Assembly: GCA_964617045.1 (NCBI GenBank)
Contig: CAZTVZ010000002.1
Span: forward strand, 12,095-76,094
Length of the DNA: 64,000 bases
Direction: 5' to 3'
From: an uncultured Gammaproteobacteria bacterium
Lineage (GTDB): Bacteria > Patescibacteriota > Microgenomatia > UBA8517
A program made the position numbers and the translations under genes. The notes beneath the pieces were generated by a model. It did no database searches and was not told the DNA's origin. It saw only the letters and a list, made by a program, of their open reading frames with translations. This document shows, one piece after another, positions 1 through 7,207 of this stretch (positions are counted from its first letter, which is position 1; each line of letters begins with the position of its first letter).

Positions 1-1065
1 GAAAAGGAATTAAATCTGAGGCTGAATAAAAACGTCGGTGAATGGGATTGGGATTTACTTGCCAAATTCGACGAAAGCTTTTTATCTACAGTGGGTTTTT
101 CAAGTGAGGAGCTGGATGAAGTTTTTGATATAGACATAAACCCTGAGATATTTGATCTCAAAAAAGAACTTCAGAAATTGAGTATTACTAAAATCGAAGC
201 TCAAAAAGGAGATATCTATCAGCTTGGGCCTCACAAAATAATGGTCGGTGACTCAACCATCGAAAGCGACATACTAAAACTTATGGACGGTGAAAAAGCT
301 GACATGTGTTTCACTGATGAGCCATATTTAATTTCATACTTAACCGGCAAAACAAAACATGGAAAAGCAACAACTGGGTTCGGTGCAAAGAGAGATAGAA
401 GATATCTGGAAACGGAATCATTACCGGATAATTTCATGGATTTGTGGATGGATAATGTGGCTAAGGTGCAAAAGGAAGATTTTAGCATTATTTCTTTCGA
501 GAATTGGAAAAACCTCCCAAAGATGTGGGAGGCAATATCCAAGTACTGGAAGATCAGAAATTTAATAATTTGGCACCTACCCAATAGAATGCAGGGATTT
601 GCAGCAAAGTATAAATTTTTTAACAAATATGATATAGCTCTCTTGGGAACTAATTCATCAGATAAGTCTGATCTCAACTTAGAGCCTGAAGAGGAACTTT
701 TGCAAAATGAGTATCAAACGGCTTTGTATGCAACAAGTGGAAAACCCACCTGGGAAAAATACGAAAAAGGCAAAAAGTATTGTCCTACTGATTTTGTTGA
801 ATATAAAGCTGCAGATGAAAAAAGTTCTGGGCAAGGGATAATCTTCGGAACCAAGCCCGTAGAGATACTTTTGCCTTATCTCAAAGTCCTTACAAAAAGA
901 AACGATTTAGTAATTGAGCCTTTCTGCGGAAGTGGTAGCACCATGGTCAGTTGCGAAAAACTCAAAAGACGTTGCTATTCTATGGAAAAAAGCCCTGTTT
1001 ACGCTATGGTTGCAATTCACAGATGGGAGAAATTGACTGGACAGAAAGCTGTAAAAATAAAATGA
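1..1065 (+). CDS. phage-type DNA N6/N4 methyltransferase, 5'-partial (frame open to nt 1; upstream part likely ParB-like N domain)
   Basis: No stop codon in frame from nt 1. Beta-class motif order: TDEPY (DPPY-like motif IV) upstream of C-terminal EPFCGSGST (AdoMet motif I). Linker EWDWDLL...GFSSEEL is typical of ParB-MTase fusions. Stop TGA overlaps next gene ATG (ATGA). Confidence 0.65.
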   Translation, partial: EKELNLRLNKNVGEWDWDLLAKFDESFLSTVGFSSEELDEVFDIDINPEIFDLKKELQKLSITKIEAQKGDIYQLGPHKIMVGDSTIESDILKLMDGEKADMCFTDEPYLISYLTGKTKHGKATTGFGAKRDRRYLETESLPDNFMDLWMDNVAKVQKEDFSIISFENWKNLPKMWEAISKYWKIRNLIIWHLPNRMQGFAAKYKFFNKYDIALLGTNSSDKSDLNLEPEEELLQNEYQTALYATSGKPTWEKYEKGKKYCPTDFVEYKAADEKSSGQGIIFGTKPVEILLPYLKVLTKRNDLVIEPFCGSGSTMVSCEKLKRRCYSMEKSPVYAMVAIHRWEKLTGQKAVKIK

Positions 1066-1493
1066 CAAACTCAATTATAAAAAGACAATCAGCCCTGAAA
1101 AAAGATTTATTGGAAAAACTAAAGGAAACGCCCGTAGTTGAAGTTGCTTGCAGAAAAATCGGGATAGCTAGAGCCACATATTACAGATGGAGAATGAATG
1201 ATGAGAAGTTTGCAAAAGAAGCGGAGTTGGCCCTAGAAGCCGGGTCAGCATTAGTAAACGACATGGCGGAGAGCCAACTTCTAACGGCCATCAAGGATCA
1301 AAATATGACGGCTATCATTTATTGGTTAAATCATCACCATCCTGCATACGCCACTAAAATTGAGGTAACGGCGAATTTAAAAAATCAAAACGAAACATTA
1401 ACTCCTGAACAGGAGGCGTTGGTGACAAAAGCCTTACAGTTGGCTTCACTAATTCCGGCAGTAGAAAAGGAAGAAAAGGAGGGACAAAAATGA
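1062..1493 (+). CDS. phage terminase small subunit (HTH-containing)
   Basis: HTH segment VACRKIGIARATYYRWRMNDEKF. Position immediately upstream of and overlapping TerL. ORF-track start 951 lies inside the methylase; ATG at 1062 preferred. Confidence 0.5.
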   Translation: MTNSIIKRQSALKKDLLEKLKETPVVEVACRKIGIARATYYRWRMNDEKFAKEAELALEAGSALVNDMAESQLLTAIKDQNMTAIIYWLNHHHPAYATKIEVTANLKNQNETLTPEQEALVTKALQLASLIPAVEKEEKEGQK

Positions 1494-3004
1494 CTTATTT
1501 TCCACAGCTCGGCAAAGAAGAATTGGACAAGATCAGGAAAGACAGAAAAATAAGACGTGCTCTGGCAAGGAAGAGTCATTATTGGTTCTTCTCACTTTAC
1601 CTTCCTCACTACATTACGTGCGAATTTGCGCCGTTTCACCACGAGATATTCAAACTAACCGAAGAAGATGTCGAGTTTGCCGTTCTTGTCGCATTCCGCG
1701 GATCGGCAAAATCAACTTTAGTCACCCTCTCGTATGTGATTTGGGCAATCACTGGAATTCAGCAAAAGAAGTTTGTGTTAATCGTCAGTCAAACTCAAGC
1801 ACAGGCAAAACTGCACTTGGAAAATATAAAACGGGAACTTGAGAACAATGACCTACTAAAAGCTGATATAGGTCCATTTGAATCACCGAAAGATGAGTGG
1901 GGGTCAAATTCGATTGTAATTCCAAAGTTTGGAGCAAGAATTGCAGCAGTTTCTACCGAGCAAAGCATCCGTGGAGTCAGACATGGTCAATACAGACCAG
2001 ACCTCATTATTTGCGACGACATTGAGGATATTAACAGCGTTAAAACCAAAGAGGGGCGGGACAGAACCAACACCTGGTTTAATGCTGAAATTGTTCCGGT
2101 AGGTGACAAAGGTACAAAAACATTGGTAATCGGAAATCTTCTCCATGAAGACAGTTTGATAATGAGATTCAAAAAATCTATCTATGAGGGAAGATTATCG
2201 GGAGAATTTTTTGAATATCCGCTTCTTGATGACAGCAAAAATATTCTGTGGCCAGCCAAATACCCAACAATGGAAGATGTTGAAAAACTAAAGAAAACAT
2301 TTTTGCAGGAATCAGCTTTCTATCGGGAATATTTACTTAAAATAATTTCAGATGAGGACAGAATTGTTAAACGTGAGTGGATTAAATATTATGATGATCT
2401 CCCTTCTCCGGACGCAGATGATTTTGAATTTGCAGGTGTAGGAATCGATCTTGCCATCTCTGAAAGAGAATCGGCAGATTATACAGCCATGGTGTCCGCG
2501 TATATGTTCAGTCGTGATGAAAATCTGCGTGTATATATTCTTCCTAATCCCATAAACAAAAGAATGGATTTTCCGACAACAGTTAATATTGCAATTTCAC
2601 TTTCAAAAACGGTTGTGCATGGAGAACAGACAAAATTATTTATTGAGGAGGTTGGCTACCAAAAGGCTTTTATTGATTACCTGAGTAGCAAAAACATTCC
2701 CGTTGAGGGAGTTCAAGTCCATGGGCAGGATAAAAGAACACGTCTTGCCCTCGTAACTCACATAATTCAGCAGGGGAAAGTTTGGTTTCCAAGGCACGGT
2801 GCCGAAGAATTGATTAACCAACTGACTGGATTTGGAATCGAAAGACATGATGATTTAGCTGATGCATTTTCATTGTTACTTCTTAAAATACTTGAGGAGG
2901 CCAGTAAACCAGGGTTCCAATTTTGTATTGTCGATTGTTCACGACCGTATATAGACAATTTGTTCCGCGAGTTTCATGGAGATGATCCAGATGATTGGGA
3001 CTAG
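1490..3004 (+). CDS. phage terminase large subunit (ATPase + nuclease)
   Basis: Walker A-like AFRGSAKST, Walker B ICDDIED, C-terminal nuclease-like region GVGIDLAISERESADYTAMV. 504 aa. ATGA overlap with TerS. Confidence 0.8.
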   Translation: MTYFPQLGKEELDKIRKDRKIRRALARKSHYWFFSLYLPHYITCEFAPFHHEIFKLTEEDVEFAVLVAFRGSAKSTLVTLSYVIWAITGIQQKKFVLIVSQTQAQAKLHLENIKRELENNDLLKADIGPFESPKDEWGSNSIVIPKFGARIAAVSTEQSIRGVRHGQYRPDLIICDDIEDINSVKTKEGRDRTNTWFNAEIVPVGDKGTKTLVIGNLLHEDSLIMRFKKSIYEGRLSGEFFEYPLLDDSKNILWPAKYPTMEDVEKLKKTFLQESAFYREYLLKIISDEDRIVKREWIKYYDDLPSPDADDFEFAGVGIDLAISERESADYTAMVSAYMFSRDENLRVYILPNPINKRMDFPTTVNIAISLSKTVVHGEQTKLFIEEVGYQKAFIDYLSSKNIPVEGVQVHGQDKRTRLALVTHIIQQGKVWFPRHGAEELINQLTGFGIERHDDLADAFSLLLLKILEEASKPGFQFCIVDCSRPYIDNLFREFHGDDPDDWD

Positions 3005-3009
3005 TTACT

Positions 3010-3225
3010 TCAAAAGAGGTCGGAGATATCAGTCTTCAGCACTTTAGAAATTTTTGAGAGAAGTTTGAGGGATGGGGATTTCCTGCCCTGTTCGATATGC
3101 CCCATATGAGTTCTACTAATGTCTAGCTTGCTAGCCAGCCCCTCTTGAGACAGGTCAAGAGATTTTCTAAGCCTTTGGATTTTCTTCCCGAGTCTTTCTT
3201 TAGTTTGTTTAGTACTTCTGATCAT
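3010..3225 (-). CDS. XRE-family HTH transcriptional regulator (Cro/CI-like)
   Basis: LRKSLDLSQEGLASKLDISRTHMGHIEQGRKSPSLKLLSKISKVL matches HTH_3 pattern. 71 aa. Confidence 0.8.
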   Translation of the reverse strand: MIRSTKQTKERLGKKIQRLRKSLDLSQEGLASKLDISRTHMGHIEQGRKSPSLKLLSKISKVLKTDISDLF

Positions 3226-3260
3226 AAGCTATTATTGATAGCTATTAGGTCTCAATCTAC
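3226..3260. promoter_or_regulatory. operator-like palindromes between divergent XRE gene and downstream gene
   Basis: AGCTATTA repeated twice; ATAGCTAT is a perfect palindrome. Located directly upstream of the XRE start in the divergent intergenic region. Confidence 0.3.
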
Positions 3261-3356
3261 TAGCCATAAGCGAGCATATAGCCTCAACTTATGCTTGACT
3301 TTGAGGCAATTTACATGCATCATTCAGGTAATAGGAAAGAAAGGGGGTGAAATTTA

Positions 3357-3905
3357 ATGAAGAAACAATGTAAAGCTTGTAAATCAGAAATTGACGCAAA
3401 AGCCACTAAATGTCCGAAGTGTGGGGCTGACCAGAGAAATTGGTTTAGAAAACACCCTATTTTGACCGTTATTTTGGCACTTATTCTAATAGGAATGATT
3501 GGAGGTGCTGCCGGAGGCGATAAAAGTAGTTCCTCACAGTCAGAAAATAAACAACAGACAAAGGAGACTACTCAACCATCGCAAGAGGTTATTGTTGTCG
3601 CAGCACAAACCTTAGTTGGAGAATATGATAAAAATAAGCTTTCGGCACAAGATAAATATACAGGTAAACTAGTTCAAACAACCGGATATATAGTCAATAT
3701 CAGCAACGATATTACCGGAAGTTATTATCTATCTTTGAAACCAAACAACGATCAATATTACTTTGGTACCACAATTGCTTGCTATTTTGACAATAAGGAC
3801 GATCTAACATCCCTTGAGAAAGATCAAAAAGTAACAGTAAAAGGGAAAATGCAAGACATGACCTTGGGAATAGTAAATATTAAGGATTGTGAATTGGTTA
3901 AATAA
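3357..3905 (+). CDS. zinc-ribbon membrane protein with extracytoplasmic domain (phage accessory, function unknown)
   Basis: N-terminal CKACKSE...CPKCG zinc ribbon, one TM helix (ILTVILALILIGMIGGAAGG), Ser/Gln-rich linker, C-terminal beta-rich domain. Divergent from XRE. Confidence 0.5.
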   Translation: MKKQCKACKSEIDAKATKCPKCGADQRNWFRKHPILTVILALILIGMIGGAAGGDKSSSSQSENKQQTKETTQPSQEVIVVAAQTLVGEYDKNKLSAQDKYTGKLVQTTGYIVNISNDITGSYYLSLKPNNDQYYFGTTIACYFDNKDDLTSLEKDQKVTVKGKMQDMTLGIVNIKDCELVK

Positions 3906-4023
3906 AACGCTTTAGCCTTGGTAAAACAGTGACCGACCAGGGCTAGAGTTGTTTTAGGTGGTTTTTCTAAATCTTCAGATTGCGTCTGGACTTCACCCAC
4001 ACCTGCGGTACTCTCCCTTTAGG

Positions 4024-5337
4024 ATGCAAATAAGTCAGAACCAGGAACAAGAAATAATACCAATTGAGTATTGCCTTTATGCGAGAAAATCTTCCGAAAG
4101 TGACGAAAGGCAGGCAATGTCGATCGATTCACAGATAAAGGAAATGACTGATCTGGCAAAGAAAGAAAACCTAATAATTAGTGAGGTCAGACAAGAAAGT
4201 CATTCGGCCAAAGAGTCGGGACAAAGACCTGTGTTTGTACAACTTTTAAATGATCTGAGAAATGGAATTTTTGACGGAATTTTGACATGGGCTCCGGATA
4301 GGCTTTCCAGAAATGCCGGAGACTTGGGGATGTTGGTTGATTTAATGGATCAAGGAAAACTTCTAAAAATTAGAACTTTTTCCCAAACGTTTTCCAACAC
4401 ACCAAATGAGAAGTTCCTCCTCATGATTCTTTGTTCTCAAGCAAAGCTTGAAAATGATCAAAAGGGAGTGAATGTTAAACGGGGAATTCGGCATAAATGT
4501 GAGATGGGCTGGAGACCGGGAATGGCTCCAATCGGATATTACAACAGGGCATTTAATGGAGTTAAAGATATTGTTGTTGATCCGGATAGAGGCCATTTAA
4601 TAACTGAAATGTTTGAAAAAGCGATTAACGGAGAACATGGTAGATCGATTAAAAAGTGGGCAGATAAGGCGGGACTTAATAATCGGTCAGGAAAACCAAT
4701 TTATCTATCACAAATATACAGAATGCTTAAAGATACTTTCTATTATGGAGAATTTGAATATCCTGTTAACAGCGGAATTTGGTACAAAGGCTCCTACCCA
4801 CACTTGGTTACTAAAGAAATGTTTTTAAAGGTTCAAAAACTCAGAATGAGCATCCCGCCAAAAGCCAAATGGCGCAGTAAAAATATCTTATTCAGAGGAC
4901 TATTTAAATGTGCCAGTTGCCAAGCAGGAGTAACCTGTGAAGAGTCTTTCAGAGAAAGATTACACGGAGAGCCCAGGAGACACGTCTACTATCACTGTGG
5001 AAGAATCAGGGATCCAAATTGCAAAGAACCATTCGTGTCAGAAGAAAAATTAATTAGCTCATTAAATAAATACATCAGCTTTATGGCAAATAATCATCCT
5101 CAAACTGTTAGGTTGTCTCAAAAGATTAAAATTGGAATGGAAGCATATAACAATATTCGAGAAGAAGCCCTGATCCAACAGAATATCAATCCCAAAGGCA
5201 AGGCCCTGTCTTTTAACGAGTATGCCCAACACATTTTGAGGAACGGAACAAACGAGGAGAAAAAGGAAATGGCCATGGCTTTTGATAAACAACTCTATCT
5301 TCACAACAGAGAAGTCTGCGGGGCGCCGATCAAATAA
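4024..5337 (+). CDS. large serine recombinase (integrase)
   Basis: N-terminal resolvase motifs YARKSSESDERQAMSIDSQ (catalytic Ser) and DRLSRN. Large C-terminal recombinase domain with Cys-rich zinc ribbon (CASCQAG...HCGR). ORF-track start 3958; ATG at 4024 preferred. Confidence 0.85.
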   Translation: MQISQNQEQEIIPIEYCLYARKSSESDERQAMSIDSQIKEMTDLAKKENLIISEVRQESHSAKESGQRPVFVQLLNDLRNGIFDGILTWAPDRLSRNAGDLGMLVDLMDQGKLLKIRTFSQTFSNTPNEKFLLMILCSQAKLENDQKGVNVKRGIRHKCEMGWRPGMAPIGYYNRAFNGVKDIVVDPDRGHLITEMFEKAINGEHGRSIKKWADKAGLNNRSGKPIYLSQIYRMLKDTFYYGEFEYPVNSGIWYKGSYPHLVTKEMFLKVQKLRMSIPPKAKWRSKNILFRGLFKCASCQAGVTCEESFRERLHGEPRRHVYYHCGRIRDPNCKEPFVSEEKLISSLNKYISFMANNHPQTVRLSQKIKIGMEAYNNIREEALIQQNINPKGKALSFNEYAQHILRNGTNEEKKEMAMAFDKQLYLHNREVCGAPIK

Positions 5338-5338
5338 A

Positions 5339-5857
5339 TCAGGGCATAAAGAAGTAGCCATACTCATCAAACGGAAAATGTCCCGAAGGTCGGTTAAGAA
5401 GAATATCCGCTATTTGCCAGGCATCCATATTTTCGGAAATCCTGTATTCGGCGTTCGTATCAATGGTACGGTTTTTATCAACTACAATTGCTTTATCACT
5501 CGGAGTAACGTCTTTCGTATGCTCCAATGCATATCGAAGTGATTTTTCATCTCTAACAAAACCATAATAGGCAAGATTTCCCACAAGTGCATCTAAAGTA
5601 ACATTAGTATTTATTCTTAGATTGATGTTTCCGTCGACCCCCGGTCTTGATCTTGTTTCGGATGCTTCCTGGGGAGTCATATGGAGCCTTTCAATAAAAT
5701 AGTCCTCAACCTTTTTTGGAGAGCTCCAGCCCCTTCCAGGAGCTTTAACATTCTCCATGTTAGGCTTTTTTTCAGACAGGAAAAAGGCTGAAACTCCAAG
5801 AACTAAAAGAACTCCAACAATAATCAAATACCTGTTTTTGAGAAGCTTTTTAGCCAT
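5339..5857 (-). CDS. MltG/YceG-like endolytic transglycosylase, N-terminal fragment (truncated; ends just before the catalytic EGYLFPDTY-type motif)
   Basis: N-terminal TM anchor, YceG-like pattern (NAEYRISENMDAWQIADILL). Protein stops at ...FDEYGYFFMP, 1 nt from the recombinase stop codon. 172 aa versus about 350 expected. Confidence 0.45.
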   Translation of the reverse strand: MAKKLLKNRYLIIVGVLLVLGVSAFFLSEKKPNMENVKAPGRGWSSPKKVEDYFIERLHMTPQEASETRSRPGVDGNINLRINTNVTLDALVGNLAYYGFVRDEKSLRYALEHTKDVTPSDKAIVVDKNRTIDTNAEYRISENMDAWQIADILLNRPSGHFPFDEYGYFFMP

Positions 5858-6093
5858 ATCCAGTCAATTATATCTCATAAACTCAAACAAAGTAGAGATT
5901 CGAACGGAGGTTTTTCGAGGGTAAACGATGGTTATAGTCCTCCTCTTTCAAAATAGCACTTTAGACGGAAAATACGGGCTATTCGAGAGAGTCGGGTCAC
6001 TGAGGCTGCACACGCTTGCTGCCAGAAAGTGATTCTCACTCCAGCCTCAGGGTCCAGGTATTATTTTGTCAGTTTACACCAACATTTGCTTTA

Positions 6094-6129
6094 GAACAAA
6101 AAGATTCCACCCAATACTTGGGTGGAATC
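6094..6129 (-). terminator. rho-independent terminator downstream of hsp20
   Basis: Perfect 10-bp stem GATTCCACCC/GGGTGGAATC with 7-nt loop, followed on the minus strand by TTTTTGTTC. Confidence 0.6.
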
Positions 6130-6153
6130 TTAATTGAGTGTCTAAATTGACAC

Positions 6154-6582
6154 TTACTCACCAAGTGTTTTAACTTGGATTTTTTTCGGTTGCGCTTTTG
6201 GAGACTTCGCAAAGGCGATTGTCATTACTCCATGTTTATACGTAGCCTCTGGATCTTTAGTAGTATCTACATCCCCAGGAATAGCTACTCGATAGGAAAA
6301 TGATTGACTTGCCTTTCGGTAGTATTTCTTTTTCTTATCCTCTTCCTCTTCTTTTTTCTCTCCTCGAACCCAAACATATCCGTCCTGGAATGTCACATCC
6401 ACATTTTTAGGATCAATACCGGGAACGGCTGCTTCCACATAGACGTTATTTTCGTCTTCATAGATCGAAAGACCGCTTTGGGTTGAAGGGGAAGTTAACC
6501 ACTCCTCGTCTTCATCCCAAAAGTCTGGAAGAGAAAGGCTTGGAAAAGATAAAAGCCTTCTTGGAATTAGACTATTTGTCAT
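6154..6582 (-). CDS. Hsp20/alpha-crystallin family small heat shock protein
   Basis: Alpha-crystallin domain (VYVEAAVPGIDPKNVDVTFQDGYVWVRGEK...GVMTIAFAK). GGAGG 8 nt upstream of ATG at 6582. ORF track uses GTG at 6591. Confidence 0.85.
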   Translation of the reverse strand: MTNSLIPRRLLSFPSLSLPDFWDEDEEWLTSPSTQSGLSIYEDENNVYVEAAVPGIDPKNVDVTFQDGYVWVRGEKKEEEEDKKKKYYRKASQSFSYRVAIPGDVDTTKDPEATYKHGVMTIAFAKSPKAQPKKIQVKTLGE

Positions 6583-6606
6583 TTTTCTCACCTCCTTTCA
6601 TGTATA

Positions 6607-6633
6607 TTAGCAGTCTAATAAATGGAGTGCCAA
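6607..6633. promoter_or_regulatory. CIRCE-like inverted repeat (candidate HrcA-type operator) in hsp20 promoter
   Basis: On the hsp20 strand: TTGGCACTC-N9-GACTGCTAA versus CIRCE consensus TTAGCACTC-N9-GAGTGCTAA (1 mismatch per half). Flanked by -35 TTGACA; -10-like TAGACT lies within the right half. Confidence 0.6.
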
Positions 6634-6774
6634 TTTGTCAAGAGGGTTTTTAATTTGAGGTAGAAATAGTCCTGAATAACAAGGGTACGGTCCGAGACTT
6701 CTTAAAATAAGATGACACTTAGCAAACAGAATCGGGCTTTTTTAGAGCTTAGGGTCGCTTGGTGTCCAGTCTTG

Positions 6775-6845
6775 CTGCGGGTCAGGGATTCGAACCCCAA
6801 TAGGCAGATCCAGAATCTGCAGTCCTACCGTTAGACGAACCCGCA
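6775..6845 (-). tRNA. tRNA-Gln (anticodon CUG)
   Basis: Cloverleaf folded by hand: acceptor TGCGGGT/ACCCGCA with U1:A72 and G73 (bacterial Gln identity), D-arm GTCT-AACGGTA-GGAC, anticodon stem GCAGA/TCTGC, loop TTCTGGA, T-arm TGGGG-TTCGAAT-CCCTG. No encoded CCA. Confidence 0.75.
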
Positions 6846-6890
6846 TTATATCTTCAGTGTGATTTTATCAAATTGCGAAAGAAAATGGTT

Positions 6891-6927
6891 GCGGGGGATT
6901 GTTTTTTTTGGAAAAACTTTCCCCCGC
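6891..6927 (-). terminator. long GC-clamped hairpin between small ORF and tRNA-Gln (terminator-like)
   Basis: GCGGGGGA...TCCCCCGC outer stem with internal T8/A5 pairing. Confidence 0.35.
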
Positions 6928-6967
6928 TTTGGCTGGTACATTTGGCTGTCAACCCGTTTTACAGCTT

Positions 6968-7207
6968 TTAGCTGTTAAGTATTTTTAACGCTTTGTCAGT
7001 AAAACTGACTCGGTTATTCTTATCAATTTGAATAATTTCATATCGTATTAATGGCTTTGCATCACAAGCGGTAGGTGAGGCAGTGCCTTTAAAATTGGGA
7101 TTCTTGTTCATCATATTGACCAAGTTTCTGGCCATCTCCATGGAAATGCCGTTTATGTGTAAACTTGTGAGCTCTTCCTCGAGAGCTTTCCAATTATATA
7201 TAGTCAT
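6968..7207 (-). CDS. hypothetical small protein (79 aa)
   Basis: ORF only; no recognisable motif. Confidence 0.3.
   Translation of the reverse strand: MTIYNWKALEEELTSLHINGISMEMARNLVNMMNKNPNFKGTASPTACDAKPLIRYEIIQIDKNNRVSFTDKALKILNS

Follow-up and report, generated by a model that had tools for sequence, protein, structure and literature searches.

The described systems closest to the element reported here are the phiC31/Bxb1-type integrases, Ccr of SCCmec and XisF of the fdxN element with regard to its recombinase, and the phage satellites with regard to its other genes. tRNA targets are more typical of tyrosine integrases, which are also generally used by the satellites compared here (PICI, cf-PICI and PICMI), and SaPI/PICI carry TerS only. 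The PICMI contain int, alpA and prim, have no packaging genes and are packaged as concatemers (PMC10803314), and the cf-PICI show capsid genes together with HNH-TerS-TerL (bioRxiv 10.1101/2022.09.08.507074). Our element is located at the left end of a 64,000-nt stretch of contig CAZTVZ010000002.1 (positions 12,095 to 76,094, forward strand; from here on, the window), from a genome of Microgenomates/Woesebacteria type (candidate phyla radiation, CPR) according to the organisms named for its homologues. An island of 12,366 bp has probably been inserted at the 3' flank of a tRNA-Gln(CTG) gene; it extends 5.6 kb past the left edge of the window, and positions 1-6770 correspond to its right 6.8 kb.

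As in the phiC31/Bxb1, SCCmec and fdxN systems, the recombinase shows Resolvase, Recombinase and Zn-ribbon domains, its gene lies near the island edge and the junction repeat is very short; however, this island targets the intact 3' flank of a tRNA and belongs to a CPR host. Two features of a large-serine-recombinase element are present, namely the three-domain recombinase and an insertion in relation to an empty site with a short common core (in relatives whose DUF5667 protein is 72-81% identical), which supports the description of this region as a phage-gene-bearing integrative element made in a previous reading of the sequence alone. With the phage satellites it shares a small size, integration, an integrase, a repressor-type regulator, packaging genes, anti-phage-type cargo and the lack of tail genes, and with PICMI a minimal gene set. 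In contrast to cf-PICI, TerS and TerL are found without capsid, portal or protease, and unlike PICI, P4 and PICMI there is no primase or replication gene. Furthermore, it differs from satellites in the use of a serine recombinase and has no known helper phage, and it shares with the PICI, cf-PICI, P4, PLE and PICMI marker sets only TerS, TerL, XRE and integrase.

An insertion between tRNA-Gln and a DUF5667 gene

The Logan contig L007, present in the samples SRR24756002-5, is 100% identical to window 1-6803 and adds 8,978 nt leftwards (negative positions lie to the left of the window). The left flank of the island in this contig is an intact DUF5667 gene (L007 2514-3305). Loci with an empty site were obtained by searching homologues of this gene and reading their contigs, and tRNA genes were called by ARAGORN. 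In L060, whose DUF5667 is 81% identical, tRNA-Gln(CTG) is located 58 nt upstream of DUF5667; in L061/L062 (76%), tRNA-Gln(TTG) is located 56 nt upstream; and L063 (72%) shows tRNA-Gln, a scar and then DUF5667. None of the island genes was found at these three sites. In the window genome, the distance between tRNA-Gln and DUF5667 is 12,366 bp, flanked by CAAG. The two genes are adjacent in the relatives and 12,366 bp apart here; therefore, the island spans from -5595 to 6770, including the 172-aa open reading frame (ORF) g172 and an HSP20 gene downstream of the recombinase.

The attachment site of L060, read in the orientation of the tRNA, is ...CCCGCAG CAAAG GGTTAAGG..., whereas in the window genome the tRNA-side junction is ...CCCGCAG CAAG ACTGGACACC... 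and the far-side junction is ...TGTCGCA CAAG GGGTAATAT...ATG (DUF5667). According to the comparison of both junctions with the empty sites L060 and L061, the tRNA-side repeat CAAG (CTTG on the plus strand) is located at 6771-6774 on the minus strand and its partner at -5599 to -5596 (L007 3379-3382). The tRNA-side copy shares one base with the call for tRNA-Gln(CTG) (6774-6845, minus strand), the intact chromosomal attachment site, which adjoins DUF5667 in L060, L061/L062 and L063. The element-side arm of this junction is formed by a conserved motif, CCTGAATAACAAGGGTACGG (6671-6690), and a spacer of about 95 nt (6671-6770 altogether, minus strand). The same spacer and motif (CTGAATAACAAGGGTACGG) are found in L046, where the recombinase is directly convergent on tRNA-Gln(TTG), there is no g172, and motif and recombinase stop codon overlap; L059 shows the motif as well. 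These alignments show an insertion relative to the empty sites and place its junctions within a few nucleotides.

The sequence-only reading had proposed a site-specific integration into mltG, with attR at about 5330-5345 and the missing 3' half of mltG past the left end. The data indicate another target, the 3' flank of tRNA-Gln, which adjoins DUF5667 in element-free relatives. The proposed end is misplaced by 1.4 kb, as the element runs on through g172 and HSP20 to about 6770, and at the left end there is the intact DUF5667 gene, with no YceG in 9 kb leftwards. Likewise, a search for inverted or direct repeats of the 5337/5338 junction in 13 kb leftwards gave nothing above shuffled controls. 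The island is an ordinary tRNA-associated genomic island, moderately unusual in form and host; it is precisely delimited, with empty sites identified, in a host group whose mobile elements are poorly documented.

Backbone genes and their recurrence

The row of genes proposed from the sequence alone, a partial ParB-methyltransferase, TerS, TerL, an XRE regulator, a Zn-ribbon membrane protein and a large serine recombinase, was confirmed by ORF listing and profile searches, and its ATGA-type overlaps are found at 1062-1065 and 1490-1493. The ParB_N + N6/N4 DNA methyltransferase gene (1-1065, plus strand; Pfam N6_N4_Mtase E 9e-21) has its C-terminal 354 codons inside the window and starts 251 nt to the left; the full 438-aa product in L007 shows ParB_N and N6_N4_Mtase domains and matches phrog_498 (E 2e-76). 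The TerS-like small terminase (1023-1493, plus strand) only has weak matches, to PHROG small-terminase families (E 6e-7 to 2e-4) and Pfam Sf6_terminase/HTH (helix-turn-helix); an alternative start at 1062 gives the ATGA overlap with the methyltransferase stop, and the gene is directly upstream of terL in all copies. The large terminase TerL (1490-3004, plus strand) matches Terminase_6C (E 5e-7) and phrog_38 (E 1e-80). Next, and divergent from the following gene, is an XRE/Cro-CI type HTH regulator (3010-3225, minus strand; HTH_3 E 2e-13) with 87-90% identity in L005, L009 and L059. The membrane protein with a Zn-ribbon, a transmembrane segment and an OB-fold (3357-3905, plus strand; the OB protein) matches tRNA_anti-like (E 4e-21), Zn_ribbon_3 and phrog_8545 'superinfection exclusion Sie-like' (E 2e-13), and occupies a variable slot of the backbone in which other genes take its place in other copies.

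The large serine recombinase (4024-5337, plus strand) has 437 amino acid residues from the ATG at 4024, although a GTG at 3958 is also open. It shows the Resolvase, Recombinase and Zn_ribbon_recom domains (Pfam E 1e-20, 6e-12 and 6e-5, respectively), matches the phrog_95 integrase (E 3e-56), and its N-terminal motif YARKSSESDERQ holds a candidate catalytic serine, read directly from the sequence. The best NCBIfam matches were CcrB, XisF and CcrA, all of them far under their cut-offs. No recombination directionality factor was recognisable by sequence.

The whole backbone has the order p273 (with an HTH-like C-terminus), ParB-methyltransferase, TerS, TerL, XRE, variable membrane protein and recombinase. 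The ratio of nonsynonymous to synonymous substitution rates (dN/dS) was 0.02-0.09 for methyltransferase, TerS, TerL and recombinase, with synonymous sites saturated; it was 0.03 for TerL in relation to L009 and 0.02-0.05 for recombinase. Backbone genes are thus under purifying selection. As previously stated from the sequence alone, no portal, capsid or tail genes follow the recombinase, and none is found within 9 kb upstream. Furthermore, no island gene, nor any gene of the other copies examined, matched portal, capsid, protease, tail, lysis, primase or replicase families in Pfam, PHROGs and NCBIfam, and no AlpA or HNH genes were detected in the island. Portal, major capsid, tail and lysis genes, characteristic of a complete temperate prophage, are missing across the whole island according to Pfam and PHROGs, and likewise in L059 and the IMG/VR copies. 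The two origins offered by the sequence-only reading, a prophage whose structural genes lie upstream or a degraded remnant, do not fit these data: because the 9 kb upstream lack structural genes and the backbone dN/dS is 0.02-0.09, the island is not a full prophage, nor is it a remnant in decay.

Two proteins of 1178 and 270 aa (p1178 and p270) are encoded far from the tRNA, at the other end of the island (L007 3393-7738, window -5585 to -1240). A counterpart of p1178 with 66% identity, p1176, is found in L059, where the 270-aa gene is absent. Searches of p1178, p270 and p273 against Pfam, PADLOC, PHROGs and NCBIfam gave nothing at E <=0.01, the sole match being a chance-level Pfam one for p273 (E 0.08). 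A model of the p273 family (predicted local distance difference test score, pLDDT, 81) only gave spurious Foldseek matches in PDB to 14-3-3 proteins (TM 0.22), which were rejected. Immediately before the methyltransferase gene, where p273 ends (L007 8659-8696, window -319 to -282), there is a perfect palindrome, CATCAATTAAGCTTAATTGATG, which may act as a terminator or an operator; it is kept in L009 with 92% identity over 38 nt.

At least 14 loci, whose flanks vary, repeat the order methyltransferase, TerS, TerL, variable slot (XRE, Sie-like or other) and recombinase; the recombinases encoded there are 45-94% identical to that of the window. The NCBI contig L059, from a metagenome-assembled genome and with unrelated flanks on both sides, shows p1176, a p273 homologue, methyltransferase, TerS, TerL, XRE, OB protein, recombinase (62%), a 205-aa cargo protein (p205) and tRNA-Gln(CTG), and its homology with L007 begins exactly at the p1178 stop. 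The interval between recombinase and tRNA contains no gene in L046, p205 in L059, g172 in L005 and L013, g172 with p64 and p171 in L009, and g172 with the HSP20 cassette in the window; because its contents differ among these loci, this interval is a cargo slot. Flank genes of other copies are often of defence type: HsdR and HsdS, an SNF2 helicase with NOV_C, Dcm-Vsr, and an HSP70-like protein with an AAA ATPase. In addition, the module has a mosaic composition: in the comparison of the window with L005, identity is 84-90% for recombinase, OB protein and XRE and only 41% for TerL, in relation to 59-73% for housekeeping proteins.

The 172-aa membrane-anchored protein and the tRNA-proximal region

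The ORF g172 (5339-5857, minus strand) is convergent with the recombinase, with 1 nt between its end and the recombinase stop codon (5335-5337), as the sequence-only reading had noted. In that reading, g172 was the N-terminal half of an MltG/YceG-like transglycosylase. A total of 217 homologues were found; among the matches listed, nearly all have 165-175 residues and cover the whole query, and the 30 aligned homologues all show the same C-terminus (...GHFxFDEYxYFFMP). The dN/dS of g172 ranges between 0.05 and 0.09 (in relation to L005 and L009). The window protein has no match to the Pfam YceG model (PF02618; 275 positions, gathering score 32.4 bits) at E <=0.1, and sub-threshold matches are found in 20 of 30 family members, with a best E of 8e-4. 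No catalytic domain was found in any of the 217 homologues, nor in the 54 clusters retrieved when the family profile was searched against 1.84 billion representative proteins; none of these clusters has the length of MltG, and all are <=270 aa except four weak multi-repeat matches. Neither the profile against PDB sequences (no match at E <=10) nor the AlphaFold model (pLDDT 80; no Foldseek match in PDB or BFVD) gave a relative of known structure.

Two longer paralogues of 215-218 aa, in L015 (9014-9670, minus strand) and L048 (11291-11941, plus strand), share with g172 only the central domain, with 40-51% identity. Both score 18-20 bits against YceG (cut-off 32.4) and cover only its N-terminal 64-90 positions. 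These paralogues also adjoin terminase-recombinase modules, and the methyltransferase of L015 is accompanied by a divergent LexA/S24-type repressor.

The protein resembles MltG/YceG in its N-terminal membrane anchor and in the domain behind it, whose similarity to the YceG model is below threshold and limited to the first 64-90 positions; in contrast, the g172 family has about 170 residues, lacks the catalytic domain and is carried on mobile elements. According to these sequence data, g172 is a complete stand-alone protein, predicted to be membrane-anchored and with a remote YceG-N-terminal-like domain, not an mltG fragment. The distance to the recombinase does not change this, because convergent gaps of 1 or 0 nt at the g172 stop are also found in loci with unrelated neighbours; close abutment of stops alone is therefore no signature of integration. 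No bona fide mltG was found among the ten window ORFs of 250-870 aa with transmembrane segments. Without disruption of mltG no cell-wall phenotype is expected, which removes a false lead.

A search of 185,579 species genomes with highly conserved g172 peptide patterns gave only 32 loci, and the contigs of several of them had been placed by binning in unrelated phyla. About 18 loci show g172 inside a unit of about 7.1 kb (group A element) with the order hairpin-rich left end, DUF2958, 67-aa ORF, g172, Replic_Relax, coupling-protein-like ATPase (DUF87/TrwB/TraG-D_C), XRE, small ORF, large serine recombinase and convergent tRNA-Leu/tRNA-Glu. Exactly this unit is common to L026 (9160-16320) and L020 (9234-16383), which are assigned to different candidate classes, with 90% nucleotide identity and unrelated flanks; therefore, its bounds are fixed and g172 is internal. 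The group A family is also found in Microgenomates in L030, L034, L022, L036, L028 and others. By its Replic_Relax, coupling-protein-like ATPase, DUF2958, serine recombinase and tRNA end, group A resembles the integrative mobilizable elements with a serine recombinase (review PMC5704250); the window island differs from these in having no transfer genes, and shares with group A only g172 and the recombinase family. These loci show that g172 is complete and mobile, travelling with Microgenomates mobile elements, and in the island it is cargo.

The tRNA-Gln(CTG) gene precedes g172 in the window, L005, L009, L013, L014, L016 and L018 (window group), and in L012 a tRNA-Gln(TTG) is located about 1 kb upstream of g172. 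In the window group, a conserved leader of about 155 nt begins at the 3' end of tRNA-Gln. In the window, this leader (5858-6014, minus strand; about 80% nucleotide identity to L005 and L009, and aligned with L046, L005, L009 and L013) is separated from the intact tRNA, and its tRNA-proximal part is homologous to the sequence after tRNA-Gln in other copies. Adjacent to it, a degenerate 25-mer resembling the 3' half of tRNA-Gln, followed by CAAG (6015-6043, minus strand), can be aligned with the junction where tRNA-Gln and leader really meet in L009 and L005, and forms an internal junction-like site. Between this site and the intact tRNA-Gln there is a 750-bp cassette (6015-6770) with the gene of an HSP20 small heat-shock protein (6154-6591, minus strand; HSP20 E 4e-17), which was not found in any related locus; the cassette also contains the motif CCTGAATAACAAGGGTACGG described above. 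This third junction-like site, together with the cassette, looks like the trace of two successive events at one tRNA, the outer one reduced to the cassette, which may be the stump of a second element. The two events may have come in either order, and recombination between related islands is another possible origin.

Three loci, L012, L014 and L018, show g172 without a recombinase module, and L016 shows a C-terminal remnant of the recombinase; from these it follows that modules are gained and lost at the tRNA-Gln site. In L014, the g172 leader is broken (6840-7110) by two short palindromic inserts resembling miniature transposable elements. In L063, the stretch between tRNA-Gln and DUF5667 (3367-4000) contains a 102-aa ORF, a tRNA-3'-like remnant, a leader-like stretch and no element genes; it looks like the scar of a past integration at the same site.

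Proposed mode of spread and rival explanations

In the mechanism we propose, the large serine recombinase would have put the island between the 3' flank of tRNA-Gln(CTG) and the DUF5667 gene, and we infer that it integrates and excises the island at a core around CAAG. TerS and TerL would package the island DNA into the capsids of a helper phage, protection of the transferred DNA would fall to the ParB-methyltransferase, XRE would be the switch, and the Sie-like protein and the end cargo might benefit the host. Because terminase and methyltransferase are present and there is no capsid, portal, tail or recognisable replication gene, a helper-dependent, satellite-like spread, with its own DNA packaged in helper-phage capsids, appears the most likely mode, which we put forward tentatively. 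It is also conceivable, if somewhat doubtful, that the backbone represents an undescribed family of helper-dependent CPR elements, with its own terminase and protective methyltransferase, no capsid or replication genes, integration at tRNA genes by means of a large serine recombinase and, on either end, slots for exchangeable cargo such as defence genes, HSP20 and g172, the latter as a YceG-N-like envelope protein shared with the separate relaxase/coupling-protein integrative elements. No prior description of such elements was found in full-text searches of the literature on Patescibacteria/CPR mobile elements and phage satellites, which is weak evidence of novelty.

Several points weigh against the island and its proposed mode of spread. 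The empty sites come from other species, with DUF5667 proteins 72-81% identical, in which synteny with the window is lost outside the tRNA-Gln/DUF5667 pair. The position of the crossover is based on the 4-nt repeat and weak similarity of the flanking arms only; no inverted or direct repeat longer than chance links both ends, and copies of tRNA-Gln or its spacer at the left end are not longer than 16 nt. Window and L009 cease to be homologous exactly at the recombinase stop (5337|5338), and a junction there would fit too. The internal junction-like site (6015-6043) and the loci with g172 but no module (L012, L014 and L018) suggest a composite island to which g172 may have come separately. Finally, the analysis identified neither an excised circle nor a helper phage, a pac site or a replication function, and the satellite model is a prediction from the genes.

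The break at 5337|5338 is also one of the arguments for the integration into mltG, in which g172 would be the 5' half of the gene, attR would lie at about 5330-5345 and the 3' half past the left end; the single nucleotide between both stops and the weak N-terminal YceG similarity of family members agree with it. However, the break is the edge of a 782-bp indel within the island, consisting of the two extra genes of L009 (p64 and p171), and is no chromosome junction. In addition, the family is complete at 165-175 aa, with a common C-terminus in the 30 aligned members and dN/dS values of 0.05-0.09, no relative of MltG length is found among the 1.84 billion representatives, the PDB profile search and Foldseek returned no MltG, the 9 kb to the left contain DUF5667 as flank and no fragment of YceG, and the empty site is tRNA-Gln beside DUF5667. 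This explanation is left with hardly any probability and is refuted by the condition that the sequence-only reading had set for itself. A related explanation disrupts no gene: g172 and its leader would be the remnant of an older element at tRNA-Gln, and the module would have integrated later at the 3' end of g172, so that 5337/5338 would be a true attachment site. It agrees with the loci in which g172 lies beside tRNA-Gln without a module, with group A elements and L046, where the recombinase gene is followed directly by the junction, and with the fact that the copies with a recombinase at least 73% identical and a visible right flank all abut g172, apart from L009, which has two genes between. 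It is nevertheless improbable: the recombinase C-terminal remnant of L016, beside p171 and g172, indicates that module-free loci can arise by deletion; in L059 and L046, which have no g172, tRNA-Gln bounds the same backbone; the gene beside the recombinase varies (g172, p171 or p205), so there is no common target; and the element-side spacer of L046 shows homology to the g172 leader.

An unlikely but somewhat better candidate is a domesticated, immobile prophage remnant, whose methyltransferase, terminase, Sie-like protein and recombinase would be kept by the host for defence or regulated DNA rearrangement. The lack of structural and replication genes, the purifying selection and the defence-type genes beside many copies (HsdR/HsdS, SNF2 + NOV_C and Dcm-Vsr) would be expected from it. 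However, the same backbone is found in unrelated neighbourhoods (window, L059 and L005), the module genes are mosaic, with TerL at 41% beside recombinase, XRE and OB protein at 84-90% and housekeeping proteins at 59-73% between the window and L005, and more than 14 lineages would have had to arrive independently, by gene loss, at an identical minimal set, which is unlikely.

The tRNA-Gln gene emerges as a hot spot at which serine-recombinase elements integrate recurrently. The compact terminase backbone without capsid genes, which recurs in many loci, is useful for mining CPR genomes and the 'proviruses' of IMG/VR, where such contigs are flagged as viral yet cannot encode a virion. The ends of IMG/VR contigs were excluded as evidence, since trimming at gene boundaries by the provirus caller is suspected, and no terminal repeats coinciding with the module were found in these contigs. 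One of them, 3300014205_009253, shows two methyltransferase-TerS-TerL-recombinase modules (L054 3516-8120 and L052 5983-11263) about 17 kb apart, with unannotated genes between them.

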